Assembly (NCBI GenBank): GCA_035221665.1
Contig: CM069169.1
Coordinates: forward strand, 18,104,001-18,168,000
Reading direction: 5' to 3'
Length of the DNA stretch: 64,000 nt
From: Okamejei kenojei
Taxonomy: Eukaryota
Part shown: positions 1 through 59,822 of the stretch, one piece after another
Position numbering within the stretch: position 1 is the first letter of the stretch
Layout: every line of letters begins with the position of its first letter
Notes under the pieces: generated by a model
Database searches by the model: none
The model's input: the letters and a program-made list of their open reading frames with translations, nothing else
Told to the model about the DNA's origin: nothing
Position numbers and translations under genes: made by a program

Positions 1-1157
1 CTATATGCAGATTGAAGTCACCCATTATAACTGTGTTACGCTTGTTGCACGCACTTCTAATTTCCTGTTTGATGCCATCCCCAACTCCAATACTACTGTT
101 AGGTGGCCTGTACACAACTCCCACTAGCATTTTCTGCCCCATTTCCTGCAGCTCTACCCATATGATTCCACATCCTCCATGCTAATGTCCTTCCTTTCGA
201 TTGCATTAATCTCCTCTCTCACCAGCAACGCCACCCCACCTCATTTTCCTTTCCGTCTATCCCTCCTGAATATTGTATATCCCTGGATATTCAGCTCCCA
301 GCCTTGGTCACCCCGGAGCCATGTCTCCGTGATCCCAACTATAGCATAGTCATTAATAGCTATCTGCACCTTCAACTCATCCACCTTATTAGGAATGCTC
401 CTCGCATTGAGACACAAAGCCTTCAGGCTTGTTTTTACATCACTTTTACCCTTTACACAATTATGTTGACAAGTGACCCCTTTTGATTTTTTTCCTGGAT
501 TTGTCTGCCAGCCACTATTAATTTTCACCTTGCTACCACTTGCTTCTATTGTCATTTTATAACCCTCTTTCTCTCTGCTCACACCTTTAAGACACCCAAC
601 ACCTCTTATTCTCTCGTTTATTATTTTTTTCTTCTTCCCCCCGTACATGTTGGGTCTGAGTGCTTCCCTTCTCTCTCCTGCCTCAGACACCGCCTCCTAG
701 CTATCTCTATTTGAGTCCCTCCCCTCAACCTATCTAGTTTAAAGTCCCCCCAGTAGCCTTTGCAAATTTCCCCGCCAAAATACTGGTCCCCCTTGGGTTC
801 AAGTGCAACCCGTCCTTTTTATACAGGTCACTCCTTCCCCGAAAGAGGTTCCAATGATCCAGAAACTTGAATCCCTGCCCTCCACACCATTCCTTCAGCC
901 ACGCGTTTATCCTCCACCTTGCTCCATTCCTACTCTCACTGTCGCGTGGCACAGGAAGTAGTCCTGAGATTGTTATCTTTGTGGTCCTTTTCCATAGCTC
1001 TCATCCTAACTCCCTAAATTCTCCTTTTAGGACCTCTTCTCTTTTTTTACCTATGTCATTGGTACCAATATGTACCACAACCTCAGGCTCCTCTCCCTCC
1101 CTTTTCAGGATATCTTGGACACGTTCAGACACATCCCGGACCTGGCACCAGGGAGGC
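1..1157 (-). mobile_element. CR1 LINE fragment: ORF1 esterase (SGNH) end and ORF2 AP-endonuclease start; runs off the window edge
   Basis: ORF 734..952 GFKFLDHWNLFRGRSDLYKKDGLHLN; ORF 241..690 CLNARSIPNKVDEL...VGITETWL...GYTIFRRDR; frameshifted. Confidence 0.9.
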
Positions 1158-1527
1158 AAACATGTTGGGTCTGAATGCTTCTGGTACTGGTTACCACCGA
1201 TTGGTAGAACATCTGAGGAATTTAACTTCAGACGTTAAAGGAGCGGAGTCTTCTCAAAAAATACAGCCACTCTGTCTCTTCTTGTCCAGTGTCTCAGTAA
1301 GACTGGTGGGAGAACTGGGAAGGGGGAGGGGATGGAGAGAGAGGGAAAGCAAGGGCTATTTGAAGTTCAATGAGAGGTGATTGCACTGAAACTTAATTTT
1401 GGAGTTGATGTACAGTAAAGTTTATGTCTCCTCTGCCTGTAGATAGAATCCACATTGCAAGGATATCTTGAAATCTTGAAAATTGCATAATTCCCATTGA
1501 TCTAAAGGAAACATTATTGGTGCATAA

Positions 1528-2280
1528 TTGTGGTACATCTGGTAGAGCAGCTGCCTGGGTGAAATTCAGACTTTGGGTGCAGGTGTCGGTGTGGAGTGTG
1601 TACCTGCTACCTATGACTCATGAGTGTCCTCCTGGGTGCTGCAGAATCCTCCAACAACCCAAAGACATGCTGGTTGGTTAGTTTGTGTTAGAAAGAACTG
1701 CAGATGCTGGTTTAAATCAAAGGTGGACACAAAATTCTGGAGTAACTCAGCTGGACAGGCGGCATCTCTGGAGAGAAGGAATGGGCGACGTTTCGGGTCG
1801 AGGCCATTTCTTTAGACTGATGTCAGGGGAGGGGGGGACAAAGATAGAATGTAGGCGGAGACAGTAAGACTAGTGGGAGAACTGGGAAGGGAAGGGGGAT
1901 GGAGAGAGAAAGCAAGGGTTATCTGAAGTTAAGGAAGTCAATGTTCATACCGCCGGGGTGTAAACTACCCAAGCGAAATATGTGCTGTTCCTCCAATTTG
2001 ACAATGGAGGAGGCCAAGGACAGAAAGGTCAGATTGGGAATGGGAGAGGGAGTTGGTGCTGAGCCACCAGAGATCAGGTAGTTTAAGATGAACTGAGCGG
2101 AGATGTTCAGTGAAATCTGTTTGGTTAACTGGCCGCTATAAATTGCCTACATTGTGCAGGTGAGTGGTAGAAACTGAGGGGAATTGAAAATAATCAAAAA
2201 TTGGATTAATGTAGGATTAGTGTAAAATGAGTATTAATTGTTGCCCAAAGGCTCCATGCTCTATCCCTCTACGCTTCTAT
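1528..2280 (+). mobile_element. Degraded V-SINE (HE1-like) interrupted by a Penelope fragment
   Basis: tRNA-like head and V-domain-like TGTGGAGTGTGTAC...CCTGGGTGCTGC...CCCAAAGACATG; resumes at about 2115 with GGTTAACTGGCCGCTATAAATTGCC. Confidence 0.65.
1686..2113 (-). mobile_element. Penelope-like element 3' end (end of GIY-YIG ORF plus terminal repeat)
   Basis: Reverse strand encodes KLEEQHIFRLGSLHPGGMNIDF, as at 11580-11660, followed by the same tail with a decayed hammerhead motif at about 1787-1816. Confidence 0.85.
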
Positions 2281-2359
2281 GATCATGTAAAGTGGAGAAG
2301 AAACAGAATATCATTGAGACCCTTCATTCCCTATATCAGAAGCACATAAAAGCCCAGCT

Positions 2360-3497
2360 TAAGGTCCCGCACAGGAGGCTGGTGACTAAAATTAGAGCAC
2401 ATGGTATTGGGGGTAGGGTGTTGACATGGATAGAAAATTGGTTGGCAGACCGGAAGCAAAGAATAGGAGTGAACGGGTCCTTTCCAGAATAGCAGGCAGT
2501 GGTGAGTGGAGTGCCGCAAGGCTCGGTGTTGGGGCCGCAACTGTTTACCACATATATTAATGATTTGGAAGAGGGAATTAGGAGCAACACTAGCAAGTTG
2601 CGGATGACACAAAGCTGGGCGGCAGTGTGAACTGTGAAGAGGATGTTAGGAGGTTGCACGGTGACCTGGACAGGTTGAGTTAGTGGGCAGATGCGTGGAA
2701 GATGCTATATAATATACATAAATGTGAGGTTATCCACTTTGGCGGCAAAAACAAGGGGGCAGATTATTATCTCAATGGGGTTAGGTTAGGTAAGGGGGAG
2801 GTGCAGCGAGACCTGGACATCCTTGTACACCGGTCAATAAAGTTGGCTTACAGGTACAGCAGGCAATGAAGAAAGCTAATGGAATGTTGGCCTTCATAAC
2901 AAGAGGATTTCAGTATAGGAGTAAAGAGGTTCTTCTGCACGTGTACAGGGCTCTGGTGAGACCACATCTGGAGTATTGTGTACAGTTTTGGTCTCCTAAT
3001 TTGAGGAAGGACATCCTTGTGACTGAGGCAGTGCAGCATAGGTTCACAAGATTGATCCCTGGGATGGTGGGACTGTCAAATGAGGAAAGATTGAAAAGAC
3101 TAGGCTTGTATTCACTGGAGTTTAGAAGGATGAGGGGGAATCTTATAGAAACGTATAAAATTATAAAAGGACTGGACAAGCTAGATGCAGAAAAAATGTT
3201 CCCAATGTTGGGCGAGTCCAGAACCAGGGGCCAGTCTTAGAATAAAGGGGAGGTCATTTAAGACTGAGGTGAGAAAAAACCTTTTCACCCAGAGAGTTGT
3301 GAATATATGGAATTACCTGCCACCGAGGAATTTAAGAGAGAGTTGGATAGAGCTCTAGGGGCTAGTGGAGTCAAGGGATATGGGGAGAAGGCAGGCATGG
3401 GTTATTGATAGGGGATGATCAGCCATGATCACAATGAATGGCAGTGCTGCCTCGAAGGGCCAAATGGCCTCCTCCTGCACCTATTTTCTATGTTTCA
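2360..3497 (+). mobile_element. CR1 LINE (HER1-like), 5'-truncated, RT C-terminal half and 3' UTR
   Basis: KVPHRRLVTKIRAHGI, SGVPQGSVLGP, LVRPHLEYCVQFWSP; tail TTCTATGTTTC. Confidence 0.93.
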
Positions 3498-4179
3498 GCA
3501 CAAACATAAGCACACCATCTCCCAAAATAGTATGTACATTATTGCCAAGATCTGCTTCTCACAGTAGATTATTTAAAGATATGCTCTAAAGTAATTTATA
3601 TTCCAAAAAAGAAGATAAGCACCTGAAGTCCACTTATGTATTTTCAAACTTCTGACATGGACAAACATTCCAAGGTTGTGATGCTGCAGAAATGACTACT
3701 CTCTCATTATCAGGCTTTTACCACAATGAGTCAGATCATCCAGTCTGCTCATACGCCCACCTGGGTCTCTAGCCTCCCTCATATCTCAGAGGTCTCCACC
3801 CCCTCTCTGGGATACTCTCAGAGCTCGGTCTGTCCACCCAATCCATAGTTGGGACTCGGTTGCTTCGGCAGCAGACCTCACAAACATGGAACAGATCACA
3901 GGAAAAGGCACTTTGCCCTAAATTGTCTGTACCGAACATGATGCCAACTCATCTTCTCTGCCTATATGTGATTTATATAACTCCATTTCTTGCATGCCCA
4001 TGTGCTTATTTAAAAGCCTTTTACATTTCCCTGTCATATCTGCTTGCACCACTATTCCTGGCAGCACATTCCAGGCATGCACCACTCTTGTTTTGCATGT
4101 CCTTTAAACATTCCCCCTTTACCTTAAAATTATGGCTTATTGTCTTTGACATTTCCCCCGAGAGAAAAGAGAGAGGCCA

Positions 4180-4357
4180 GTTCATTGGCTATATTTAAGA
4201 GGGAGTTAGATGTGGCCCTTGTGGCTAAAGGGATCAGGGGTATGGAGAGAAGGCAGGTACAGGATACTGAGTTGGATGATAAGCCATGATCATATTGAAT
4301 GGCAATGCAGGCTTGAAGGGCCGAATGGCCTACACCTGCACCTATTTTCTATGTTTT
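4180..4357 (+). mobile_element. Short CR1 3'-end fragment
   Basis: Near-identical to 25110-25290 (GATCAGGGG...GAAGGGCCGAATGGCCT...TTCTATGTTT). Confidence 0.85.
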
Positions 4358-5405
4358 TGACTATCTACCCTATTTATGCCTCTCAAAATGTTATATACTC
4401 CTCTCAGGTCTTCCCGCAGACTTTGGTGAAAACATTGCAATTTTGTTCAACGTCTCCTTACAGCGAATAGCCTCTAATCCAGGGAGCATTCTGGTAAACC
4501 TCTACTGCTCCCTCTCCAAAGCATCCACATACATTCTGTAATAGGGCGACTAGAACTACACAAAATACCCCAAATGTGGCAACCAAAGTTTTATAATGCT
4601 GCATCATGACTTCCAACTCCTGTAATCCATTCCCCGAATGATAAAGGCAAACATACTATTCTCCTTCTTTGCCATTCTATCCGTTGTCACTTTCTGGGAG
4701 CTATAATCTTGGATCCCAAATCACTTACCAGTTCAATGTTGGTAAAGATCTTGCCATTAAATGTATATTTTCCTCTTACATTCAACTCCCCAAAGTACAA
4801 CACCTCACACTTTCAAATCACTCACATCCTTGGAACTGAGTAATTATTTGCAACGCATCAAGGGGTGCATAATACAATGAAAGCAATAGTTGCTTAGGTA
4901 AATTACTCCAAAGACAGACTTTAATGGGATGTTTTAAATCATCATAAAATCTGTTTAATTCAGTAAACTGCTCACCCCATCTGCTGCAATGAAGATGTTT
5001 ATTAATCTTTGAAAGTTTCTGCAATTAATAAAAGTAAATGTTATCTTTGCACAATAGACTTTAGTCCCCAACTCAGTCACTAATTTGTGAAGTTCATCCA
5101 GTAATTAGATAGACATAATGTGGAATGTAAATAAGTAGCCACTGGAGGGCAGTAGATTATCATAAATAACATGAACGGTACACTCCCTCTGCTCCTCCAT
5201 GGGTCTACATGGGGGATTGTACTATGTTGCTATGCACAATGTCATTCTGTATGTTTCTGGAGACTCCAGCTTTCATAACAGTGCTCCAAAGAGATAGTCT
5301 TTGCCACATGTTCTGATTGTTGCTCATCCTAGTTGTGTACTGTACTGGCAACTTAAGATAAGACCACATTTGCTATATGTCTGTAAGTAGCTACTCAAGA
5401 GTGTT

Positions 5406-5781
5406 AAAGAAGGAACTGCAGATGCTGGAATTGAATTTTTTCAATTCTGTTAACCCTTACTGTCTCCTCCCCTTCCCACCTCTCCCTCAGCCCTCGGGCC
5501 CTGGCATTCCCTCTATCTCTATCTCCCTCCCCCACCCTAGTCGCACTAGCTTCTCATTTTCACACCACAAACAGCTTACAATGGCTTGTTCCCTTTATCA
5601 TCGATACTTTTTTGCATATCTTTCATTCATTGTTCTTTATCTCTCCACATCACCGTCTATATCTCTCGTTTCCCTGATCCCTGACCAGTCTGAAGAAGGG
5701 TCTCGACCCGAAACGTCGCCTATCTCCTTCGCTCCTTAGATGCTGCTGCACCCGCTGAGTTTCTCCAGCCTTTTGTGTACC
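5406..5781 (+). mobile_element. Penelope-derived terminal fragment with intact hammerhead motif, inverted 5' piece and 10-bp TSD
   Basis: TSD CAAGAGTGTT at 5396-5405 and 5782-5791; motif CTGAAGAAGGGTCTCGACCCGAAACGTC at 5690-5717; 5406-5430 is the reverse complement of the family terminus seen at about 50523-50546. Confidence 0.85.
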
Positions 5782-5789
5782 CAAGAGTG

Positions 5790-6330
5790 TTTTATTGTCA
5801 TATGTCCAGGACTGGACAATTAAATTCTTACTTGCTGCAGCATAACAGAATATGTGAATATGTAAACATTGTAAATAACAGAAGGAAAAAAAAGATAAAG
5901 TTCAACAAATAACAAATATAGTGCAAATAACAAATAACAATATAGTCTTTTGCAGTTCAGAGCTTATTCGATGTTGTTTAATAGCCTGATGGCTTTGGGG
6001 AAGCAGCTGTTCCTGAACGTGGACATTACAGTTTTCAGGCTCTTGTACCTGATGGCAATGATGAGATGAGTGTGTGGCCAGGATGGTGTGGGTCCTTGAT
6101 GATTTTGGCTGCCTTTTTGAGGCAGCGACTACGATAGATCCCTTCGACGGTGGGGAGGTCAAAAGCTGGTGATGGACTGGGCAGTGGTCACAACATTTTG
6201 TAGTCTTTTTTGCTCCTGGACGTTCAAGTTGCTGAATCAGGCCACGATGCAACCAGTCAGAATGTTCTCTATCGTGCACCTGTAGAAGTTTAGGAGAATT
6301 CTCTTTGACATGCTGAACCTCCATATATAA
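5790..6330 (-). mobile_element. Rex1/Babar LINE 3' end
   Basis: Reverse strand encodes YRCTIENILTGCIVAWF...KAAKIIKDPHHPGH...FPKAIRLLN, typical of the Rex-Babar post-RT region; tail ends GACAATAAA. Confidence 0.8.
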
Positions 6331-6889: not shown

Positions 6890-8045
6890 TTTAAGTGGTG
6901 GGGAAAATGAATGAATGAATGTGGAACATTTGGACATTCAGAATATTTTGATAAGATGACAATGATATTGTTAAACTACATTAGGGCAAAGGTAATTGGG
7001 CTAGAATACCAATATCGATTAAGGAATAATTAAATGGCCAAAACAGAGTGAAGAAATAATCGTGCAATTTTCCAGCTGAAACGTGACATATTGAATTACA
7101 TTGTGGCAAGCGGGATTAGTGCAGGATCCCCAACAGCCCAAAATCAGTGTCAATGATTTGGATGAAGTGTAACAAATCCAGGTTAGCTGATGATCTTAAG
7201 ATGGGTGCAGAGGATTCAGCGTGGTTTCGGAGCATATAAAAGGGCTAAGTGAATCGTGAGGACAAGGCAGATGGAAAACTTTAATGTAGAAAAGTAAGAG
7301 ATTGCCTCCTTTGGGAGAAAAAATAGCAAAGCAGTGTTTTCTAAATGATGAGAAACTGGAAGGTGTTCAAACGAAGGCAAAGGGTAACTTGGTCTCTATT
7401 ACAAGAGGATTTACAGCAGAAGACAGACTTGCTGCAATTATATAGAGATCTGGTGAGTCCACACTTGAAATATTATGTATCTAGTCGCCTTACCCAAGGA
7501 AGGATATAGACAAAGTGCAGTGAGGGTTCACACAAAATGCTGGAGTAACTCAGTGGGACAGACAGCATCTCTGGAGAGAAGGAATGGGTAAGGGTTCACC
7601 AGTAAGGGTTCATCAGATTGTTGGCAGAATTTCTGAATAAGGAGGGATTAAACAGACTGGGCCTGTAGACTCTAAGGTTGAGAACAAAATGAGACATCAT
7701 CCCACTGGAATGAAGAAGACTATTATGGAACTTGTGCAGGGATGATGTTTAACTTGGCTGCAGTGTCTAAAAAACAGACCTTGACAGCCAATAAAGTTAC
7801 CATCATAGAGTACCTCAATTAATATCCATGAATTTATCATTGACCAAAAACTAAAAATAAAAGTTTATTTTTATTCTACCTTGAATAACCAACCTTTTGT
7901 CTCAAAATAAAAGGTTGGTTATTCAAGGTAGAATTTATTTATGCAGAACCTTTGCAATTCTGTACCCATAAAGGCTGTGGAATTTCATTTACTGAATATA
8001 TTGAAGAAAGAGATCCATATACTTTTGGGGACTGAGAGATATGAG
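6890..8045 (+). mobile_element. Old degraded CR1 LINE with nested insertions
   Basis: Recognisable CTGGTGAGTCCACACTTGAAATATT (LVRPHLEY-like) and other CR1 3' motifs, many indels. Confidence 0.65.
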
Positions 8046-8485
8046 TTTAATTTAGTTTATTGTTGTCATGTGTACTGATGTACAGGGAAAGGATTTTTGT
8101 TGTGTGCTATCCAGTCCGCAAAAAGACTATACATGATTACAATCAAACTGTCCACGGTGTACATGGTAAAGGGAATAATATTTAGTGCAAGATAATGTCT
8201 AGTAAAATCCAATTACATATAGTCAAAAGGTCTGCAATGAGGTAGATGGTAGGTCAGGACAACTCTCTAGTTGGTAATAGGATGGTTCAGCTGGGACGAA
8301 ACAGTCCCTGAATCTGGAGGTGTGCGTTTCACAGATTCTGTACCTCTTGCAGGGTGAGACTCATCCTTTACTACGTTGGTGGCCTTGCAGAGGCAGCGTG
8401 AAGTGTAGATGGAGTCAATGGACAGGAGGTCGGTTTGCGTGATGGTCTGGGCAACGCCAATAATTTTTTGTAATTTCTTGTGGTG
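8045..8485 (-). mobile_element. Rex1/Babar-type LINE 3' tail (further copies at about 39995-40250, 42157-42335, 59395-59690)
   Basis: Shared GTTTATTGTCAC/ATGTGTAC...TACAGTGAAAAGCTTTTGTTGCGTGCTATCCAGTC block; family assignment by similarity to 5790-6330. Confidence 0.65.
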
Positions 8486-11870: not shown

Positions 11871-13891
11871 GACATATTGTCATTTCCAAAACATCTAATA
11901 TCTGAAGTGTGATTTAGTGATATTTCAGTGGTACATCTTCTGTTGAAAAACAATGGTGGAATATTCAGATAGGGTTAACCCATTCCAGTGTGTATTAGAA
12001 TTGGCAAACCCCAGTTCATTGCAGATCATAGGTGGTTACCTGGATATTTTATAAACATTTCCATTCAAAGACCATTCGCTGAACAGACTTCAGATATGCC
12101 CTGGTGACCAATGTGTTAGACATAAAAATTCTCGGGTTTCTTGAGAATTTGTATGGCCAATTTCCAATACTCCAATCAAGTGCTTGGTAGGAAAATCTGC
12201 CAACATGGAATGGTTACTGACCTATAGGATTCATCATGGTGGTTATGACAGTGGTCCGTTAGCATATCTCTCTCTCTGGTGTTTGGCAAATGTGCCTCGA
12301 ACAACACCAGATGTTCCAGCTCTCCATGTTTATTGCATAAGTGCAAGAAAAAATGATTTCTCAAGTTAACAGTTATGGTGGGCTAATTATTTGAACTGTC
12401 CAATGAGTCTACAAAGCCATTCATTAGGTTTGTGGTTGAGCATGTCTCTTTCTTAAACCTTTCAATGCTTTTGATTAAAAAAATCCATCAATCCTGGGTT
12501 TAAAATTAGGTACCATTTGTGGAAGAGTTCCACATTTTTATCACCATGCATTTCATACCTTCACTGTTGAAAGGGTTGGTTCTGCGTTGTAATTTTTATC
12601 CTTTTCTATTCTCCCATCGGACAGGTGGTGCTTCTTTCTGTCTATCTCATTGCTTCCTTTTAATATCCTCAGTCAAATGACTGTCAGTTTTCAAAATTCC
12701 AAGAAGCAGTTGGTGATTCCATTGCATTGTGGTATAAGTGTTGAAATCCAAGTGACTATGTTCTACCTTCCTGCCTGCATACGTTCCTCGCGTGAATTGT
12801 GCAGAACTATCCTCAGTTTTCTGCGTACAGTCTAAGTACAAATCTGTTATGGCATTAAATCATCTGGATATTACGGTATACATTCCATCAGTATGTATTT
12901 CCTGTGTTTATGTGCCATTTGAATGATTATTGATAAAATAAATCTAATTCATTCCTTACCTCAGATCCATTCAAGTAGGTAGATTTCTGAACATTGTTTG
13001 TCCACTAACTTCCATGAATGTGGCTATTAATTGCAATATTACTTTGCTTATTGCCCTGATGCCTGCTAGTTCAACACAAGTTTGGTGTAGAGCTGGGATT
13101 TCCCCAGTCTCTGAATTTTCTTCCACAAGCTGAATTAGCCTCTGGGATAGGCTCCATAGATTTGCTCCCCAAGTTCCAATTCAATTCTTCCCCCTGTGAT
13201 ATATAGAGTTGTGTTGCACCAAAAAGGGCTCTTCAGCCCTTCATGTTCATGCTGACATTTCCCCCTATTTACACTAATTGGATTTACCCACATTAGATGT
13301 ACATCCTTCTTATGCCTTCTGTGTTCCACCAGTCTGAATACCGCTTCAAAATAGTGATTGTATCTGATTTCATCACTGCCAATTAGTTCTAGATATCAAC
13401 CAGTCTAAAAACCCCCATTAAAACTCTTTTGTCTCACCTTAAACCTAATTTAGAGAATTTGTCAATCTAGACAATTTCCTGGTGAATGTACTTACTTCAC
13501 GGTTGCAACATTTTTCCTAGTGTGTCAAACAGAATTGCACGCTGTACTCCCAAGTGCAGCCTAAATATGTAAAATTGCGACATAACATCCAAATTGCTCT
13601 CCAAATCTGGAGCGTATCGACATTCTCTACTGTACAATTCCATTTATGTTGATGCTGGTGGGAGCCCTACACACTTGCATCTGCTGCATTTCCCATGGAG
13701 GAGACAGCACAGAAGCAACATCAAAGCTGTGACTAGCCTAATACTCAGTCAATCTGTCGGTCAAATCAGACTTAGCTTTGAGTATTGATTATGATTCCAC
13801 ACTGATAACCTCAGCACCTGAATTGCATGGCTAATGGGAAAATGCATAGCTCTCATTTGGAGGGGTGAAATAAAGATGTCAATATATGGTG

Positions 13892-13989
13892 GGTACACAA
13901 AAGGCTGGAGAAACTCAGCGGGTGCAGCAGCATCTAAGGAGCGAAGGAGATAGGCAAAGTTTCGGGTCGAGACCCTTCTTCAGACCCAT
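13892..13989 (-). mobile_element. 98-bp Penelope-derived hammerhead unit with 16-bp TSD
   Basis: ATGTCAATATATGGTG at 13876-13891 and 13990-14005; body nearly identical to 5688-5781 and 42380-42476. Confidence 0.9.
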
Positions 13990-14129
13990 ATGTCAATATA
14001 TGGTGACATTTTGCCTGCAGCTGGGCAGATTAATGTTAAATATACATGTTTTAAACACGAATCAATGTACCTGTTTTAAACAATTAATCAACTAACATGC
14101 TTCTTCTGGTTCATCTAAATTATTATTGT

Positions 14130-16510
14130 TACTATTGCCGAATGGTCACAGATCTGACTCCATGACAGTAAAATACAGTACCTGGAAATGCAGTGGATGC
14201 TGGACTTCCAGGTACTATATGTCAGTGACTGGAAACATGGATTGGACGTTGGCATCAGGAAAAGGAAGTGCCATTTGTTATATGATGAGCAGTTTGTGCT
14301 GGTCCTGTCCAACTCTTGCTTTCCCCCACCTGGAATATCTAGTATTGAAGTGCCATCCCATCTACCTCCCAAGGGAATTTGTCCATCACCATGATTGCTG
14401 CGTTTCTCCTGCCCTGGGCAGATATTTAACTAGCACTTGAGGAACTATATACCATAGTCAACAGGCGCAAGACAGTGTACCCCAATATTTATCTGTCATA
14501 GCCAAGGATTTCAACTAGGCTATCTTGCAGAAGACGCTTCCGAATTACCATTAACATGCGTCCTGCAGCACCAGAGGATCAAATACTCGTGACCAATGCC
14601 ACAGTGATGTCTACCACACCAAGCCTCACCTGTGCTTTAGAAAACCAGATTACCTGGCTATGCTCCTTCCTGTATATGACTGGTGACTTAAAAAGTCCAG
14701 TTCTGGTGAGGAGAATTGCTGGTCATTGGAAGGCAGAGGAACTACTTCACGGCTGCTTGAACTTGGTCGATCGGGCAATATCGAAGGACTCGGCAACAGA
14801 CTTTAATAAATATGCCCTGGTTGTTACCGACTTCAGAAGGAAGTGTGTGGATGAGTCTGTTCCTTCCAAAACTATCCGAGCTTTCCGTAGCCAGGTCCCT
14901 TGGATGAACCAGGAGATATGAACTGAGGACCAGATCTGTGGCGTTCAAGTCAGACGATTCTGAGTCGTACATGACGTCTAGATGGCCACCAAGAATGCAA
15001 AGAGACACTTCTAGGCTAAACTGAGGGTCAGATGCTTGGTAACATGGCAGGGCTTTCTACAAGATGAAAGTAAATAACTGAAGTGACAGATGCACCACTC
15101 TCAGATGAGCTCCATGTTTTCAATGCTTGCTGTGAAAGGGAGAGCAACAATGTACCTCACGGGCCCCCACGACCCCCCATTACTCTGATTCATTCTCTGA
15201 GGTCGACACCAGAAGAACCTGAGGAAAGCATCTGGCCTGATGGCGCCCCTGGCTGCATTCTCATAATCTGTGCAGGCCAATTGGCTGTAGTGTTCATCAA
15301 CATCTTCAACCTCTCAGTACTGCAGGGCCAGCCTACTTTAAAGGGCATCTATAATGACAGTGCCCAAGAGGTGACATGCCTCAACGACAAATGATTAGTG
15401 GTACTTGTGGCCATTATGATGAAGTGCTTGGAAATGTTGGTTATGACACAAATCAACTCCTGCCTCAGCAATGACCTGGACCCATTACTATTTGCCCAAT
15501 GCTGCGTCAACAGCGGGTGCGATTTCATTTGCTCTCCTCTCTGCGCTGGACCATTTGGATAACAGGAACACATGCATCGGGCTGTTCATCAGCATTTAAG
15601 ACTTTTGCCCATTCCAAACTCACTGTCTATATCTCGGGGATCTTAGTCTCCACTTATGCAACTGGACCGTCATCTTGCTTATCAGCAGACTCCAGTCAGT
15701 GCAGATTGACATCATGAGCACAGGGTACCTCAGGGCTGTGTAGTCGATCACATGCTCCTCTCTCTCCCTCTCTCCCTCTCCCCACCATGGCTACCTGGCC
15801 AGGTACAGCTTCTCACCATCTCTAAATTTGCTGAGCAATACAGGTTTTTGATGTACCTGAGTGCGGGAAGGATCTGGTTGTATAGTACAAATTCCTGCTC
15901 TGAACTTTAGCAAGACCATAGAGCTTATTGTTAACTTCAGCAAGCGGAAACTGCGGGTCCGTGCACTTGTTTGGTAGATCAGGCATTGGTTGGACGATGT
16001 TAAGTACGGCGTTAAAAAAAGTTAATANNNNNNNNNNNNNNNNNNNNNNNNNNNNNNNNNNNNNNNNNNNNNNNNNNNNNNNNNNNNNNNNNNNNNNNNN
16101 NNNNNNNNNNNNNNNNNNNNNNNNNNNNNNNNNNNNNNNNNNNNNNNNNNNNNNNNNNNNNNNNNNNNNNNNNNNNNNGAACCAAGCATTTTAATGTCAT
16201 CATAAGGAAAACTTCCTCAAATTCCTCTATAAAACTTGTACTGTTAGTTCCACTTTCAAGAATAGCTTCTCTCCATCAACCATGAGGTTCGTGAAACACC
16301 CTGCTCAACCCTGACCGCAACCATACCTCAGCAATAAACCACTACAGACTTTGCACTATAATTATGCTTTACATGCTTGTTGCTCTAACATGTCTGCTTA
16401 ACATGGAATCACTGGGGATTTATTGCGTATTGTTGCTTCTGCGTTTAATTTACCTGTAAAGCTGCAGCAAGCATAAATTATATTCTGGTTCATATCTGGT
16501 GCACATGACA
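14130..16510 (+). mobile_element. Degraded long Rex1/Babar LINE
   Basis: Remnants IYLPREF (endonuclease), PWMNQEI, QLAVVFINIFNLS, VTCLND, LDPLLFA (RT); many stops and frameshifts; spans the assembly gap. Confidence 0.8.
16028..16178. other. Assembly gap (151 N)
   Basis: Run of N. Confidence 1.
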
Positions 16511-24715: not shown

Positions 24716-25290
24716 GTGAGTACCTGCCACACCTGGAGTATTGCTTACAGTTTTGGTCTCCTAATCTGAGGAAAGACATTCTGGCCATAGAGGGAGTACA
24801 GAGAAGGTTCACCAGACTGATTCCTGGGATGGCACGACTTCCATATGAAGAAAGACTGGATAGACTCGGCTTGTACTGGCTGGAATTTAGAAGATTGAAG
24901 GGGGATCTCATAGAGACTTACAAAATTCTTAAGGGGTTGGACAGGCTAGATGCAGGAAGATTGTTCCCGATGTTGGGGAAGTCCAGGACAAGGGGTCACA
25001 GTTTAAGGATAAGGGGGAAGTCTTTTAGGACCGAGATGAGAAAATTGTTTTTCACACAGAGAGTGGTGAATCTGTGGAATTCTCTGCCACAGAAGGTAGT
25101 TGAGGCTAGTTCGTTGCCCATATTTAAGAGGGAGTTGGATGTGGCCCTTGTGGCTGAAGGGATCAGGGGGTATAGAGAGAAGGCAGGTACAGGATACTGA
25201 GTTGGATGATCAGCCATGATCATATTGAATGGCGGTGCAGGCTCGAAGGGCCGAATGGCCTGCTCCTGCACCTAATTTCTATGTTTCTAT
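24716..25290 (+). mobile_element. Young CR1 LINE 3' fragment with open ORF2 C-terminus
   Basis: ORF 24685..25200 PHLEYCLQFWSPNLRKDI...TRGHSLRIRG...FFTQRVVNLWNSLP, uninterrupted; tail TTCTATGTTTCTAT. Confidence 0.93.
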
Positions 25291-39468: not shown

Positions 39469-42379
39469 TTAGTGCGAGGTGTACATCAGGTTGAAGGGCC
39501 AGTTACATGAAGGAAGAGCCAAAAGAAGAGGTATGAGTGAATACCATTAGGTCCATTGTGCCATTTCACTTTATTAATGGTACGTCAACAAGATGAAAAT
39601 GCTGCTGATCTGCTGGAAATTTTCTCTATTCTTAAACACACATGACTTGAACATTAAGCAGCAGTTAATATTATTGATTTTTAAACTAGGTCTCCTTGTT
39701 GAGATTGCCATAATCCATTACTGTCATCATTAACATCCCACACGTTACTCCAGTTTAAACATTCCGTGTAGCTGATTTGTATATGGACTATTATTGTTTG
39801 GGAGATGAGTTTTTTGGGGGCCCTGAAATAATATTCAACCGTCAAGCACTCCTATCAATTTGAGTAGTAATAATATTTAAATGTTAGACAAGCAGAACAA
39901 AAACTTAATTGAAAATAAAATGTCATGCAACAATTGACCTGGGATACCCAGGGTCTAGGGAGTGCTGTTAAAACCAAATGAGAAAGCTAATGTTAGTCTT
40001 GTTTTATTTTTTGGTTTAGCTTATTGTCACGTATATCGAGGTACAGTGAAAAGCCTTTTTGTCGCGTGCTACCCAATCAGCAGAAATACTATACATGATT
40101 ACAGTCAAGTCATCCACTGTGCACAGATACAGGATGAAGGGAATAATGTTTAGTGCAAACTAAAGTCTGATTAAAGGTCTTCCAAGGATCTCCAATGAGG
40201 TTGATGGTAGGTCTGGACTGCTCTCTAGTTGGTGATAGGGTGGTTGATCTGAGTTCCTGTGCCAGGAGGAACTGTGTATAAACTTTGGCCTAGAATTTTG
40301 CTAGCTATTTGGGCCATGGGTTTTGATGGTTTTGAGTTCAATGTTCAATATTTGAACATTGTTCTATGAATTCTTCCAGTACCTTGACGCAACTCAAAAC
40401 TTAAGATGGAGTACTGTGCACATACCTTCGAAAGCAAGATGAGTATTGTTTTATTTTCCATCCTCAAAATGTATTACACTATTGAATAATAAAGGTTGAA
40501 ATTCAGAAACTGCCAAGAGAAAATGAGTTTAAAGTGGAAATATTCAGATCTATATTTCTCTGTACCTGATCCCTCAAGGATAAGTTGGACATGTTCCCTG
40601 CAGTCAAGGTTTCCATTAAATTTTGCTGCACCATCTGTGCTTTATTCCTCCAAGCCTATTAATTGTGCAAAGCAATTCATTTATTTGTTATATTGAGGTT
40701 CTGGGCATGTGTCTTTATCGTCTTTTTCATGTCAAACTTCGCAAAGTGAAAATAAAAATTCAGTCTGTACAATTGTCCATACAATTAGATACTGGCTGTA
40801 GTCTACCTTGACTCATGCCCTCTGACATTCTTGGCAAAAACAAAGTTAATTCATTAGACCCTTTTATCCACAATCATTTTAGTGAAGAGAATTCCAGTTT
40901 TCCATAACCCTTTTTGTGTAAAAGTGCTTCCAGATTTCACCCATGGGTTGCCCAGTTTAAATTCCTCTTTTTCTTTAGATGTCTTCTCAAATTAGAAAAG
41001 CTGACTATGTATATTAATATCAAATCCCATGCAACATTAATTGGATCATTTCTCAACCTTAGACTTTTAAAATGTCAGCAACTAGTGGATCTATCTTTTT
41101 CATCCAATGTATTTGTTATGTTCCTCTGCACCAGAAGAGCTTTCCTAATGTTTTGGAGCTGGAACTGAAAGGTGACAAAACTGCTTCAGGTGGAGTCTGA
41201 ATGTACCTATGTTGATTGTGTAATTTAACTATCATTGCATTGTGCAAAACATTTTCACACTTTGTTATTTGCTCTTTTAATTGATAATTAAAATTATCAA
41301 TAACAATGACCTATTCAGCAGTATTTTTGGAGAAGTATTTTGCAGATTTTCTTAACAATTGATAATTCTGGCCATGCAGGCTTGAGATTTTATGGATAAT
41401 ATGCACCTTTGACTTTTAGAAAATCCCCAAGACCACCTCACTATCTAGTGTTCAAAATTTATCTTGGTCATGAGCCTGGGGAAGTGAATAAACCTTCTGC
41501 TCAATGTGGCTGTTTTTTCTCAAATATACTTCTCTATCGTTTGACAATAGGTGCAGGAGTAGGCCATTCGGCCCTTCGAGCCAGCACCGCCATTTCTAAG
41601 TCCTCCCTGTTTTCCCAGTGTTAACAAATATTATATTAAGAATATGATTGAACATCTTTGAAAATCTTCTGGTTAGCAGTATGTTTTTTTAAAAATCATT
41701 AATACATTGCAGTGATTATGATCTATATTGGCCTATTTCAAAGACTCAAATACAAAAAAATCTTGATTGATCTTCTAGTGTGTGCCAGAGGGACCGAGTC
41801 ACAGTTGGAATTGTCATTGTTCAACTGAATCCCTTGTTTGTGCTCTAGGGTGAATGTAAAAAATGCCAACCGCTTAATGTGAAGAAGACAGGATGCCCCC
41901 TGTTTCCAGACAATATCTTTCCCTAAAGCAACTCATTAAAAAACAGTTTGTCAGATTATTGCTATCTGTGGGAACTTGCTGTGCATACCTATGGTATAAC
42001 TCTTCAGAATGTACTCGATTAGCTGCATTTTGGGCAATTTGCGGTCACGAAGGATGTTTTACAAGTTTGTTTGTCTTATTCAAATGGGTATGAATTACCT
42101 TTGATAATGAATCCCATTTTTGTAAGGAATTGTATTCGGATTGCAAAGTATTGCAAGTTCAGTTTAATTTATTGTCACGTGTACCGAGATACAGTGAAAA
42201 GCTTTTGTTGCGTGCTATCCAGTCAGCGGAAAGACAATACATGATTACAATCGATCCATTTACTGTGTATAGATGCATGATAAGGGAATAATGTTTATTG
42301 AAAGATAAAACCATCAAAATCTGATCAAGGATAGTCTGAATATTTGAAATATTAATTGGCCTTAGTGGCAGTACTTGGG

Positions 42380-42476
42380 GGTACACAAAAGGCTGGAGAA
42401 ACTCAGCGGGTGCAGCAGCATCTAAGGTGCGAAGGAGATAGGCGACGTTTCGGGTCGAGACCCTTCTTCAGACTGA
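42380..42476 (-). mobile_element. 97-bp Penelope-derived hammerhead unit with 11-bp TSD, core intact
   Basis: CAGTACTTGGG at 42369-42379 and 42477-42487; reverse strand CTGAAGAAGGGTCTCGACCCGAAACGTC at 42471-42444. Confidence 0.9.
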
Positions 42477-45151
42477 CAGTACTTGGGAGTTATGTTGAAT
42501 TGATTGTTATATGCTCCTTATTTGATGAGTGACACATCTGTTCCTGCATGGATTCACTTAATCATTTCCGGGCATTGTATTTAAATTTTGTTGACTAATT
42601 CGTTTAGAAATGACTAAGCATTTGTGATTCCTTAAAATTCTATTTTAAACTATTTAATCAGTGATGAGGATGTAGCAAAGTGATATCAGTAGAGGTCAGA
42701 TGGAGCCTCGTTTTCTGAATTTATTAAAGCTAAATTAACTTGATGTTCAGATAGTCTTTCAACTACTCCTGAATGTTCTCGCCAACATAACATTCCCAGG
42801 TATCATCTGTCTTTATTAGAAGCCTTCATTTGATTTTGATATAAATGGCGCTGTCCTTGTACATTATGGAGTCTACAGTGTGAGATCTCAACATGTAATA
42901 TCTTGCTGAGTTGCTGCTTTATCAGATCTCAGTATCAAAGTAAGTTGAAAACAAGTTGTGGAAGTAACACATCCCCTCAAAAGTTAGCATTGTTTAGAAT
43001 CGGGGGGGGGGGGGGGGGGGGTGGGGGGTGGTATCCAGTTGGTACAAAGTCATATTGGAAACCTGCCACAGTAGCTTTCTAACAACCCTGTGCCATCTGT
43101 AACTTCGGGACTGTAGGCTTGTAGGTTTGCAAGGGAATTTGCTGGGTAAGGTGAACCAACAATATAGACACCACAGAGTGTTCATAGTAAACTGCTGAAG
43201 CAAGAGGACTTACAGCAATCATAGGCAGCATCTTGGAAGCTAGATACAGCGCTGCCCCTCTGTCTCTCCCACATGAACACATCAGATTTCCCTATAGTTT
43301 ATCTCTGACCATTCCCATTGGTGCTTAGTACAGTCCTTCCCCATTGGGTACAAAATCCTGAATGTTTCATTTTACCGCTCAGTGTTGATTGTTTGTTCTC
43401 AGATTTGTTCATGGTTCATTAATCTGCATGAATTGGAAATGGAAACAGCTTCTCAATACAATGTCTCTTTGAAGCTTTCCTGACCTCAAAGCCCTCTGTA
43501 CATTTTGGAGGGGTGGGGAGGCTAGTGAGATTTAGGGGGCCTTTCTCTAAGGGCTATGTATTTTGTTTCTGCAATTCTGTTGTCGGAGCATAATATTACA
43601 ACCATGCTAAAGCTCTGGAAGTTGAAAAGCTTCCTCATGAAACAGACTTTCATCTTGAAAGTATAAAAAGTCTTGCAACCCAGGTGCTACCTATAACCCC
43701 AACTGCCATATATACATGATTGTCAACATTTTGTGGAAAGGATCTCTTGTAATCAATAAATCATTATAAGTTTATGGAGGCTAGGATCAGTAATTATTTG
43801 TGGAAGGCCATTGCTACTGGAAAGTTATACTAATACATCTGAAATTAATTTGGCAGTAAGAGAATGTATTCAGAAGTAGCTTGGAAGATGCTCTGTCACT
43901 ATGGTATATGATATTCAGTGCTGTGTAGCCCAGGGTTAGGTAGGATTGCACCAGATCAGCATTGCCTTAATAAATGGCACGAGGGGCCGTGGCCTAATTC
44001 TCCGAGTTCCTATGTTTGTATATGGCTGGCTGGAATCGGCAAGTAGGGGGTACTTTTCACACAGACGTTTTAATATCTCTTGCTAAATCCTTCCATTTAA
44101 TTGTTAGGACCTGCTGCTGACTGGATTGTTGCAATAGGTGCTATGGGTGTTCCCTTCTCTGTAATGCCAGGCCTTGAGTCTTAAGATAAGGGTTAGGTAA
44201 GCTGCTGAAGTTTTTGATTTTTTGGAATTCTGCCACCCTGAGAGCTATTGGTCAATCACCATGTGCAGGGCTGAGGCTGATGTGGAGACATGAGGTGTTA
44301 GGTTGGGAAAACTAAACCTATGCCCCGGATTTTTACCTCAGGGACAGGACAATTTCTATTATCTGGTATCTTTCTAATTTTACACACTTCAATTAAGTTT
44401 CCCCTCAACACCTATGTATTAAAATCAGCAATGCTAACTTATCCAAGTTTACCCAACATCCGTGAAAATCTCCCCTGCACTATTTCTGGTGAAATCATCT
44501 AATTCCAGATGTGTAGCAGCAGGACCGTCTGTGGTCTACCATGTATCTCTGGCATAACCTCCTGACTCTTGTGTTGTACGGCTGCTGATGAAGGAAAAAT
44601 TCCTGTGTTATCTGCAAACCTCTTTATCGTGCCTTCTGCATATCAAGTCTCTTGTTAATAAGATCCTCGCGATAAACAATGACTTGCTTTCATGCAAACA
44701 CAATCAGATATCCAATTACTGGACCCAGTGGAATTTCACTGCTACACTCCAGGTGCAAAAACACCCATTAACTATCACCCTTTGATTACATTGTTATTGG
44801 ATTCATACAGGATGAGGCATAATCTTTTCTGCAGGTACAGGGATAGGAAAGGTTTAGGGGGATATTGTTCAAACATCAGCAGCTAGGACTAGCACAGACA
44901 GGCCATTGGTCTGCATGGGCAAGTTAGGCCGAAGGGCCCCTCTCTCTATGACTCTAATCAGGTTTGGATTGAGAAGTCTTTGTGCTTTAACAGCTGCATA
45001 TTGTATGGGTTTGTGCAAAGTGCTGAATTCCTGTCTTAGACTTTTGCTGCATTTCTGTAAAGGGCTGCTTGTGATCTTGATGTTCCCTGGTGCTAATTGG
45101 GTCTGTTCTTGACATCGGCAATCTATTGTTTATATATCCTGCCTTTTGCAG

Positions 45152-49625: not shown

Positions 49626-50294
49626 GTGAGAGACGGTCTCCTGAATATGTTCCATATATTCACAGTATTTTCACATTAGTGATGTGACGGTGTTCCTGTG
49701 CAAGCTCAATTTATTTTAGAATTGCAGTAGGTGAAGTTAAACCTCAATGACTATTTACTATAAACGAGAAAAAAAGATAGTAAAGTAGACAAACTAATGG
49801 TAGCGTACAGCCAGATGTGTCATTGTGAGGGAGTGGGCAGGGTGGCAGTTGTCTTGGCAATGGTGAGGAGTGTCGAGAGTTGAAAAAGTTTAATGGTCAT
49901 GTGTACCAGCAACAGAATAATGACATTCCTATTTGCTGCTGCTTTACAGGCCCATTAATACGATAACACAAATATACAATAATCAAGCGAGCAAGAAATT
50001 AATAAGCAGTAATATTCGATTATCCGATCAGAATGGTGCAACTAAAGCTGAGACCATAGAAGTCGTTGTTGCTGAGGCAGGGTTGTGGGTATTGCCGTGC
50101 AGCGTTCAAGAGTCTTCTGATGGTTGCAGGGAAGAAGCTATTCTTGAAAATGAAAGTGTGGATTTCAGAGAATTCATTGGGGGGGAGGGGGGGAAATAAC
50201 TGGTCTTCAGTTCATTCTCTCCTTTGTGCTAACACTATCCTCAGGTTGAGATGGTAATAGCGAATAAATAATTTGTCAACAATTGAATGAGGGA

Positions 50295-50551
50295 AAAAAT
50301 GCTGGAGAAACTCAGCGGGTGAGGCAGCATCTATGGAGCGAATAAAATGGGCGATGTTTCCGGTCTCGACCCTTCTTCAGAAAAAGGGTCTCGACCCGAA
50401 ACGTCGCCTTTTTCCTTCGAGTCTGAAGAAGGGTCTCGACCTGAAACGTCACCTATTTCCTTCGCACCACAGATGCTGCCTCACCCGCTGAGTTTCTCCA
50501 GCATTTTTGTTTATCTTCGATTTTCCAGCATCTGCAGTTCTTTCTTAAACA
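50295..50551. mobile_element. Head-to-head Penelope terminal repeats with three hammerhead-like motifs
   Basis: Arms 50295-50380 and 50423-50508 are reverse complements; motifs at 50353-50380 (-), 50378-50405 (+) and 50423-50450 (+). Confidence 0.85.
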
Positions 50552-57830: not shown

Positions 57831-59822
57831 CAGCCGCAGCTTCTCCAGTCTCTCCAAATAATGAAGGTCTTCTCTGGAATTATTTCAGTAAACCTCTTGT
57901 ATGCTTCCTAAAACATTAAAATGATTCCTAAATTGAAGGCAATTCTCTTGTTCTGGTTGAACCATTGTGTTCAACATGTTGACTGTGACTTCCTTGTTAT
58001 TGTATCTGTGCCTCTATTTAGACAATAGGTGCAGGAGGAGGCCATTGGGCCCTTCGAGCCAGCACCGCCATTCAATGTGATCATGGCTGATCATCCATAA
58101 TCAGTACCCCGTTCCTGCCGTCTCCCCATATCCCCCGACTCTGCTATCTTTAAGATCTCTATCTAACTCTCTTGAAAGCAAGCAGAGAACCGGCCTAGCT
58201 TCCAGAGAACCTAAAGTCTAGCTTCTATTTTTGGCCTGTCCCCATCAACAAACCGTGGAATATTGTATGTCATTCCATGGCAACCACTGTGGTTTTTGGC
58301 ATTGATAGGTATGAGCGCTGTCTGTAAATGCGAATGAGGAAAAATCATCTGACAACCAGCTTGTGGGTGACCTTGTAATGCACTGAGTTGCAGTTATGAG
58401 GAGAACTGATTTAAATTTAAGTAGGTCTTGTGTTCATGAATGTTATCCAAAGGCGCTGTTAAATCCTTGCCCAGATATAATTGGGATATTTTCCATCATT
58501 GATATCCCTTTAGAATTAAAATTGCTTCCTCCACAATGTCCCAGCTCCACGAACAATGTTTAGAAAGATCACTGTCCAATACTAGCATACTATAGCTGTC
58601 AGAGTTGGGTGAGAATGTCACATATCCCCACTTTGCATGATCTAGCAAGTGGAGAGAGAGATCAAGTTAAAGATTCAGACTGTTCATCTTTCTTCAACCT
58701 GATGTGTTAACGATATCTCACTCCATTGCTGCTGCCTGATCTACAGTATATTCAGAGCATCTGGAGTACTTTGCTTTTGTTCCATTGCACATACAGTCTG
58801 TCACTCCTTGAGGTGACCAATACGAAGATGAAATGCTCATCTCTGATGTTGTCAGATTCTGAAATTAAATGCTGTAAACCTGGAACTTGTGTAGATTGCT
58901 ATATGTTCTTATCTCATTACCAAAGAATGGAAGAAACAGCGTAATCTTATCGCCTGAACTTTCATCTTTGAGCTGATTAACGTGTCTCTATTCATAGCCC
59001 CTCCATCCTGTGACCCACACAATACAATTAAAAGTTACTTTGCATTGGATGCAACCAAATGAGCAAAAAGCAAAATGCTGGAGGAACTTGGTGGGTCAAG
59101 TATCATCGGTGGAAGAAAATGGACAGCTAACATTTTTTTGTTCAGACTGGTGGAATAGAGGGGAGGTAGCTGGTAGAAAGAGGTGAGGGGAAGGGGTGTG
59201 GATTGAGCTGGCAAGTGATAGGTGGATCGTGGTATGGTAGGGAGAGAAGAATGGAGAAAGTAACCAAGAGGTGTCTGCAAATGTACAACCTTGCAGTTTA
59301 ATCAGCAAAAATGTGGACCATGTCATGGGCCACCAAATTATCTAGCGGTTCAATGGTACATGTACACAGTGGTACTTGTACACTAAAACTCTTGGTTTAT
59401 TATTGTGTTGAGTACAGAGATACCATGAAAAGCTTTGTTTGCATGCTATCCAGTTGATTCAAAGTATACGTGGACACAATCTAGCCTTGCACATATAACA
59501 TCTCATGTAGAAAATAATACCTAAGTGCAGAATATCGTGCTGCAGCATTGTAGCGTTGCTGTTACAGGGGAAAAGTGCAAGATCGGAAGGTAGGTTGGAA
59601 GATCAGGACTACACACTTGCTTATGGGAAGACTGTTCAGTCATCTGATAACAGGGGAAGAAGCTATTTCTGAATCTGGTGGTACATGGCAGAAGGATTAA
59701 GAACTTTGTAGTTTGGCAATAGGAGGAAGTTTAATTTGTTATTACAATCACTTGGCAGGATCAGAATACTGACGTAATTGCAGGGATACTTGATCTGCAA
59801 AACATGTGCTTCTCTCCCCCAG

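Follow-up and report, generated by a model that had tools for sequence, protein, structure and literature searches.

Minimal hammerhead ribozymes are known from metazoan Penelope-like elements (PLEs), for which a circular template has been proposed (Cervera and de la Pena, 2014, PMC4209133). According to the in vitro work on the anole Poseidon element PAc (Frangieh et al., 2024, PMC11167929), its reverse transcriptase (RT) starts internally at two sites that bound the tail, both target strands are extended from these two start sites, uncut RNA is the main substrate, and the enzyme needs RNA as far as ORF position +172. In the Penelope element of D. virilis, a start site is followed after 46 nt by a 75-nt intron (PMC2377424), the end of which maps to hammerhead helix I (PMC4209133). 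A CX2-5CxxC motif between the RT and the endonuclease (EN) marks Neptune and Nematis, and not Penelope or Poseidon (PMC8557442). How Penelope elements form partial tandems and what role the minimal hammerheads play are regarded as open questions (PMC4209133, PMC11167929).

Here we analysed a 64-kb stretch of DNA (the whole of which is called the window) in which insertions of about 97 bp, consisting of little more than a hammerhead and flanked by target-site duplications (TSDs), had been noticed from the sequence alone. Both the stub feature and its size mode are real, and the element is of a known kind. Giving a probability of about 0.55 to this claim and to the mechanism proposed below taken together, we posit that an EN-bearing (EN+) Penelope-like retrotransposon gave rise to the inserts of about 97 bp, which would be its shortest and most frequent copies and not a separate ribozyme element.

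The insertions in the window and their parent element

Positions within the element are numbered from the first C of the hammerhead core (position 0), and the ribozyme is predicted to cut between +27 and +28. Rechecking of the coordinates confirmed the three insertions that had been picked out, of 98, 97 and 376 bp, together with their TSDs (Table 1). The two stubs are nearly identical, as had been claimed, with 3 differences over 94 aligned positions. Of these, two fall at +25 and +27 of the 13892 copy, in the region of the cleavage site, so that the ribozyme motif of this copy is damaged. The common 3' end that had been read for both stubs and the 376-bp insertion (5406-5781) lies at +91 in all three, and poly(A) is indeed absent 3' of each of them. 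With regard to the features of Pol III SINEs, no A-rich tail was found on the three window copies and Rfam gave no tRNA-like match. The larger part of the 376-bp insertion contains, in this order, the last codons of the EN ORF, a pyrimidine-rich 3' UTR, the hammerhead and the untailed 3' end.

Table 1. Coordinates of the three insertions in the window, their parts and their flanking duplications.
Feature	Position	Strand	Remarks
TSD 10 bp, left	5396..5405	.	
Piece of the 3' tail, 24 nt, inverted	5406..5429	-	24/24 matches; begins the 376-bp insertion
Copy of the element with ordinary 5' truncation	5430..5781	+	starts at -260; hammerhead (core pattern) 5690-5717
TSD 10 bp, right	5782..5791	.	
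TSD 16 bp, left	13876..13891	.	
Untailed pLTR stub	13892..13989	-	-2..+91 = 13985-13892; 4 extra 5'-junction bases = 13986-13989
Putative minimal type I hammerhead core, helix II, degenerate helix III (13892 copy)	13956..13983	-	pattern scan
TSD 16 bp, right	13990..14005	.	
TSD 11 bp, left	42369..42379	.	
Untailed pLTR stub	42380..42476	-	-4..+91 = 42475-42380, plus 1 extra base
Putative minimal type I hammerhead core, motif intact	42444..42471	-	core pattern; predicted cut after 42444
TSD 11 bp, right	42477..42487	.	

An Rfam scan of the 64-kb window returned no hammerhead family, and the hammerhead call therefore rests on the core pattern and on the published description of minimal hammerheads. 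A scan with the core pattern found seven motifs in the window, five of which belong to the stub family. The canonical type I hammerhead with a 6-bp helix I was not found here: Rfam has no hammerhead match, the predicted folds lack such a helix and, by eye, helix I pairs only at -1/+28 and -2/+29 (about 2 bp). The cut predicted after 42444 follows the hammerhead numbering of PMC4209133.

Two weak Rfam miRNA matches in the window were judged to be due to chance, and a near-perfect AT-rich hairpin at 7871-7939 carries a weak match to mir-186 (E = 0.04; 31.6 bits against a gathering threshold of 70) that is probably fortuitous. At least 13 pLTR-like copies, which belong to several older Penelope subfamilies, lie between 1723 and 59113 of the 64-kb window. 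The region 50288-50546 is occupied by an older pLTR hairpin, built head to head from a related subfamily, in which the hammerhead core is duplicated at the junction and a piece of tail is present. Other interspersed repeats, probably LINE or SINE fragments, are located at 2962-4356, 24727-25286, 41540-41594 and 57995-58172, with further families, probably likewise LINE or SINE fragments, at 8053-8293, 40014-40251 and 42162-42286; positions 16028-16178 are 151 N.

The stub family is not a product of chance, since the 2.76-Gb genome matches its diagnostic 36-nt stretch exactly at 44,147 sites and the reversed control at none. Long copies encode an RT followed by a GIY-YIG domain, and the motifs of both lie in one 405-aa frame of locus L048 and are also found in L121 and L133. 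The GIY-YIG core includes two cysteines, and a C-x4-C-x2-C linker is found upstream of it in L078, L133 and L143. Judged by this linker motif, the parent is a Penelope of the Neptune/Nematis type. Pfam matched RVT_1 (E = 0.002) and GIY-YIG (E = 0.0007) in two of three translated pieces, both under the curated cut-offs.

Copies that include the start of the ORF (ORF-start copies) are partial tandems, in which the 3' part of the ORF, the UTR, the hammerhead and the tail precede the reading frame. This frame opens immediately 3' of the tail, and its first ATG is located at +162. The upstream 3' part is present in 21 of the 24 ORF-start copies that reach +5, and seven partial-tandem loci occur in a separate locus set that overlaps the ORF-start sample. 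The predicted ribozyme, recognized by its core pattern, sits at the pLTR-ORF junction. The features of EN+ PLEs are thus found here: a single ORF with RT and C-terminal GIY-YIG, partial tandems, an optional tail, inverted 5' copies, a minimal hammerhead in the pLTR (predicted from the core pattern) and TSDs of variable length. Two young copies, L140 and L143, are 98-99% alike, by which measure the Penelope family has been active recently.

In L143, the frame at 839-3350 is open for at least 837 codons and begins with a long Pro-rich N-terminal region, in the first 254 aa of which Pfam found no match. A splice-donor-like motif at L143:870-878 overlaps the first ATG (+160 to +164), and no spliced joint occurs among the contig joints listed. 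The same locus has a long pyrimidine tract with an AG just 5' of the hammerhead.

Ends and abundance of young copies

Ends were mapped in two samples. Sample A consists of the first 100 listed 36-nt matches (C1, 0-5.16 Mb) and two more in the same stretches, giving 102 anchors. Sample B consists of 29 young copies in 864 kb of blocks from seven contigs, the window's three included, a copy being counted as young when its identity was 92% or more over 55 nt or more (29 out of 158 BLAST hits). Thirty further loci, which are biased to the 5' bases of the query, were kept outside all 5'-end counts and served only for the junction and TSD lists.

In the two samples together, 72 of 131 young copies have their 5' end at -5..+5. 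The fraction is 54/102 in sample A (53/102 under a slightly different rule) and 18/29 in sample B (16/26 without the window's three copies). The arms of inverted pairs are not independent, and non-inverted copies were hence counted separately (48/85). Among these the upstream edge is steep: 10 copies start at -4, 8 at -3 and 9 at -2, compared with just 4 over the whole of -7..-5. At -199..-50 lie 0/102 ends in sample A and 2/29 in sample B, and one of the two is due to the edge of a block. Upstream of -200, 26 copies of sample A and 3 of sample B have widely scattered ends, a few of them being lower bounds at locus edges; the 26 C1 copies spread from -242 to -1665. The sharp mode near 97 nt that had been put forward as a test was therefore found, and the clustering of ends in an 11-nt interval below a near-empty gap (2/131 at -199..-50) upholds the claim that truncation was not random. 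Only one of 131 copies starts at the hammerhead cut site (+26..+30), and hammerhead cleavage was rejected on this count as the source of the 5' end.

Two 3' ends are fixed: +91 in 87/131 copies and, in 44/131, the end of a tail of about 34 nt near +125. An inverted arm lies upstream of 46/131 copies, and the plain untailed 97-nt class accounts for 37/131. The density of young copies in sample B, 33.6 per Mb, would correspond to about 90,000 copies genome-wide if uniform. Extrapolated from the samples, the 97-nt class likely comprises tens of thousands of copies. In older subfamilies the core was found in 51/84 matches, where the measure of 5' ends is confounded by inverted arms.

TSDs of 8-25 bp were found in 30/57 short and 19/41 long non-inverted copies, in lists that include the 30 biased loci. 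At the 3' junctions of 30 of 40 untailed TSD-bearing copies, the continuation of the element overlaps the start of the TSD by 1-6 nt (p = 2e-6 against a rough 38% null), an overlap that is inflated because TSD edges were maximised in the count. This suggests short primer-template pairing at the RT start. Copies are often paired head to head, and in 12 of 13 such pairs one arm has the tail and the other lacks it, a pattern consistent with the use of two RT start sites to prime both target strands. The stubs may themselves be re-copied.

The sequence-only reading had taken the stubs for recent target-primed insertions, by a Penelope RT/GIY-YIG, of a separate non-autonomous and possibly retrozyme-like RNA. 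Its Penelope mechanism of target-primed insertion and its non-random ends are supported by our analysis, and the separate RNA is not. In variants and divergence the stubs agree with ORF-bearing copies, and they also use the two 3' ends of the autonomous element. The three-way variant at +80 is distributed 46/22/8 among 76 short copies and 19/11/1 among 31 long ones (p = 1.0), and the variant at +90 does not separate the two classes either (p = 0.20). Divergence is alike (p = 0.50), as is TSD length (median 12.5 in short copies, n = 30, vs 14 in long ones, n = 19; p = 0.60). No lineage apart from the autonomous element was seen among these 76 short and 31 long copies. Two helix II variants occurred in short copies only (7/76 and 10/76 vs 0/31; p = 0.11 and 0.06), in a comparison with few informative sites that small short-only clades would fit too.

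The build of the stub points the same way: it contains one minimal hammerhead, begins at the 5' edge of this motif and not at its cut site, and is nearly never found in tandem. Among the 102 anchors, only two same-strand neighbour pairs lie less than 400 bp apart, one of them at unit spacing, and no head-to-tail tandem occurs among the window's three copies. The unit is not bounded by ribozyme cut sites at its 3' side either, where it ends at +91 or at the end of the tail. Of the features of LTR retrozymes (two LTRs, type III hammerheads and 4-bp TSDs), none was found in the three window copies, which have one type I motif and TSDs of 10-16 bp. In such genomes, size alone is insufficient to annotate abundant TSD-flanked hammerhead stubs as retrozymes or SINEs.

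Origin of the fixed 5' end

ORF-start copies were sampled as the 30 best of 40 listed copies, with the duplicate locus L261 dropped; the sample is best-scoring and not positional, and at least 5 of its 24 copies reaching +5 are rearranged. Three of these 24 stop at -5..+5 and 21 run on to between -42 and beyond -1364, while five other copies end before +5, one of them at +6. The stop at -5..+5 is thus seen in 3/24 ORF-start copies and in 72/112 terminal copies (Fisher p = 5e-6), or in 48/80 when only non-inverted terminal copies are compared with the same 3/24 (p = 4e-5). Since 21 of 24 ORF-start copies pass through it, the hammerhead edge is no general block to the RT. The stop depends on the template and belongs to copies primed within that same terminal repeat. 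It splits templates into two kinds and hints at the copying route of Penelope. Tens of thousands of young copies provide a genomic read-out of this 5' stop, which applies to terminal-repeat-primed copies and mostly not to ORF-crossing ones.

Around the stop, an AG at -3/-2 is kept, by eye, in 15/17 long copies of older subfamilies that differ in their upstream UTRs. The bases at -5..+1 fit the initiator consensus YYANWYY. An added G was found at the 5' junction of 5/30 short and 0/19 long TSD-bearing copies (p = 0.14), which only weakly suggests a base added opposite a cap. Loose ends of contigs peak at -4/-3 and may simply mirror genomic copies, as most runs may be DNA. No match to the Drosophila downstream promoter motif described in PMC2377424 was seen by eye in sequence and spacing, and the known start of D. 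virilis lies about 120 nt further upstream, as the 46 nt and the 75-nt intron precede helix I. Alternatively, the AG at -3/-2 could be a splice acceptor and not a feature of a start site. A fixed copying distance was ruled out, since both 3' ends have one common 5' stop. Normal splicing needs a branch A further from the AG than -6; a stop at a branch point, with a candidate branch A at -6, was ruled out by reasoning alone, this base being too near the AG.

We propose that the stubs are run-off cDNA primed inside the 5' repeat of a linear RNA with a predicted 5' end near -4, which is the mechanism covered by the slightly better than even estimate given at the outset. The two 3' ends (+91 and about +125) would be RT start sites, as in the anole element in vitro. 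Priming would need RNA 3' of the tail and would then be possible only at a repeat-ORF junction; this need for downstream RNA has been demonstrated in a Poseidon element with an ORF that begins in the hammerhead, whereas the frame of our element opens after the tail. With its 5' end near -4, a linear RNA would have the front junction only and yield run-off products of 97 or 130 nt. Long and partial-tandem copies would derive from templates that extend upstream of the junction, either tandem read-through transcripts or a circle made by the hammerhead. The 3 of 24 ORF-start copies at the mode would fit a minority of dimer transcripts that start near -4. In the stubs themselves, the hammerhead is likely an uncut passenger.

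A tentative extension, which we consider doubtful, is a cycle with two templates. The linear RNA could give 97- and 130-nt stubs only, akin to integrated 'strong-stop' products, and the two minimal hammerheads of this RNA would cut it as a dimer into a unit-length circle, from which the long and partial-tandem copies would be made. If such a cycle exists, tailed stubs would be ready-made seeds for tandem retrozymes.

The main rival to run-off from a linear RNA is a stop set by the initiation complex: on a long RNA, the RT would halt at the 5' limit of the repeat in which it primed, this repeat being folded or protein-bound, while enzymes that escape would turn processive and pass later repeats. 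This agrees with the ORF-start copies passing through and with both start sites giving one stop, which is hence fixed by position. Furthermore, the 130-nt unit is predicted to close by pairing of +1..+10 with the end of the tail, and the anole hammerhead folds only with protein (PMC11167929). The predicted fold is unexceptional, however (z = -1.3 for the 130-mer and +0.25 for the 97-mer), a helix would be expected to halt the RT at its 3' side and not some bases past its 5' side, and the initiator-like bases at -5..+1 are left unexplained. We hold such a stop to be rather unlikely. Clearly unlikely, in our judgement, is that processing makes the RNA end near -4, by a cut or by splicing stalled at a 3' splice site before the core. 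The pyrimidine-rich tract and AG immediately 5' of the core, the retention of this AG in 15/17 long older copies and the D. virilis intron that ends at helix I (PMC4209133) all suit this idea, but many stubs retain -4..-2, which would be intron, and the extra bases at 5' junctions share no common exon-1 sequence. In addition, a check for splice and back-splice joints showed no GT..AG joint into the core among the joints listed (15/52 and 15/34), which come from contigs where most runs may be DNA.

More improbable still is a discrete non-autonomous hammerhead RNA, that is a minimal retrozyme with source loci of its own, mobilised in trans by Penelope proteins. Such an RNA would explain a sharp unit size, clean TSDs and copies extrapolated to tens of thousands, and could be behind the two variants confined to short copies, which are not significant. 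The derivation of animal retrozymes from pLTRs in a 2026 preprint (10.64898/2026.07.22.740005) and contigs from one run of a related organism, which join the tail end to -4 over short spacers, are in its favour as well. It is opposed by the lack of any private sequence or lineage in the stubs, by the single start at the cut site and the two same-strand neighbours reported above, by the 97-nt form being without the tail, and by the absence from both forms of the downstream RNA required by the anole enzyme (PMC11167929). Ordinary random 5' truncation does occur, as the 26 scattered C1 copies attest, but for the short class it is refuted by the 72/131 ends in 11 nt next to the near-empty interval upstream, and we give it almost no weight.

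In X5 contigs placed on L143, the tail end (833-836) is joined to the -4 region over 15-36 other letters; such joints were also seen in X2 and X3, and one of them has a depth of 759. These contig joints could stem from a tandem array of tailed stubs, a retrozyme-like satellite, in the related organism.

Comparison with described systems

Animal non-LTR retrozymes, as described in PMC7229834 and in the preprint 10.64898/2026.07.22.740005, resemble the stubs in being non-coding, in carrying a type I hammerhead, in their relation to pLTRs and in the implication of PLE machinery; the preprint also admits minimal hammerhead motifs. Retrozymes, however, consist of two or more hammerhead units in tandem, which are cut into circles, whereas the stubs are single or head-to-head, do not end at cut sites and do not constitute a separate lineage. 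With the minimal hammerheads of metazoan PLEs (PMC4209133) our element shares the type I core and the palindromic minimal helix III, and in both cases the motifs are mostly single, dispersed and linked to truncated PLEs. Helix I is about 2 bp here by eye, as in D. virilis, in contrast to the 4-5 bp given in that work, which in the passages considered here does not map the 5' ends of copies.

The anole element PAc (PMC11167929) matches ours in two fixed 3' ends that bound the tail, in the extension of both strands and in the use of uncut RNA. Its ORF begins in helix II of the hammerhead, whereas the element analysed here opens its frame after the tail (first ATG at +162). The main-text passages on PAc considered here describe no fixed 5' stop, and Fig. 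S2 of that work, which maps genomic ends of PAc, may bear on the novelty of our finding. Within the literature searched, made up of main texts with only a minority of the subscription papers, no description of a fixed 5' stop was found.

The stubs are most readily compared with the solo or 5'-truncated pLTRs of EN+ PLEs such as Neptune or Nematis (PMC8557442, PMC3846280), with which the parent element shares the RT, the C-terminal GIY-YIG and the CX2-5CxxC linker. Partial tandems, inverted 5' copies, an optional tail of 30-40 bp and variable TSDs are described there likewise. In these accounts 5' truncation is frequent and TSD-less solo pLTRs are put down to recombination or deletion, whereas the stubs here are TSD-flanked insertions and, unlike in the pLTRs described, more than half of the copies begin at a single point.
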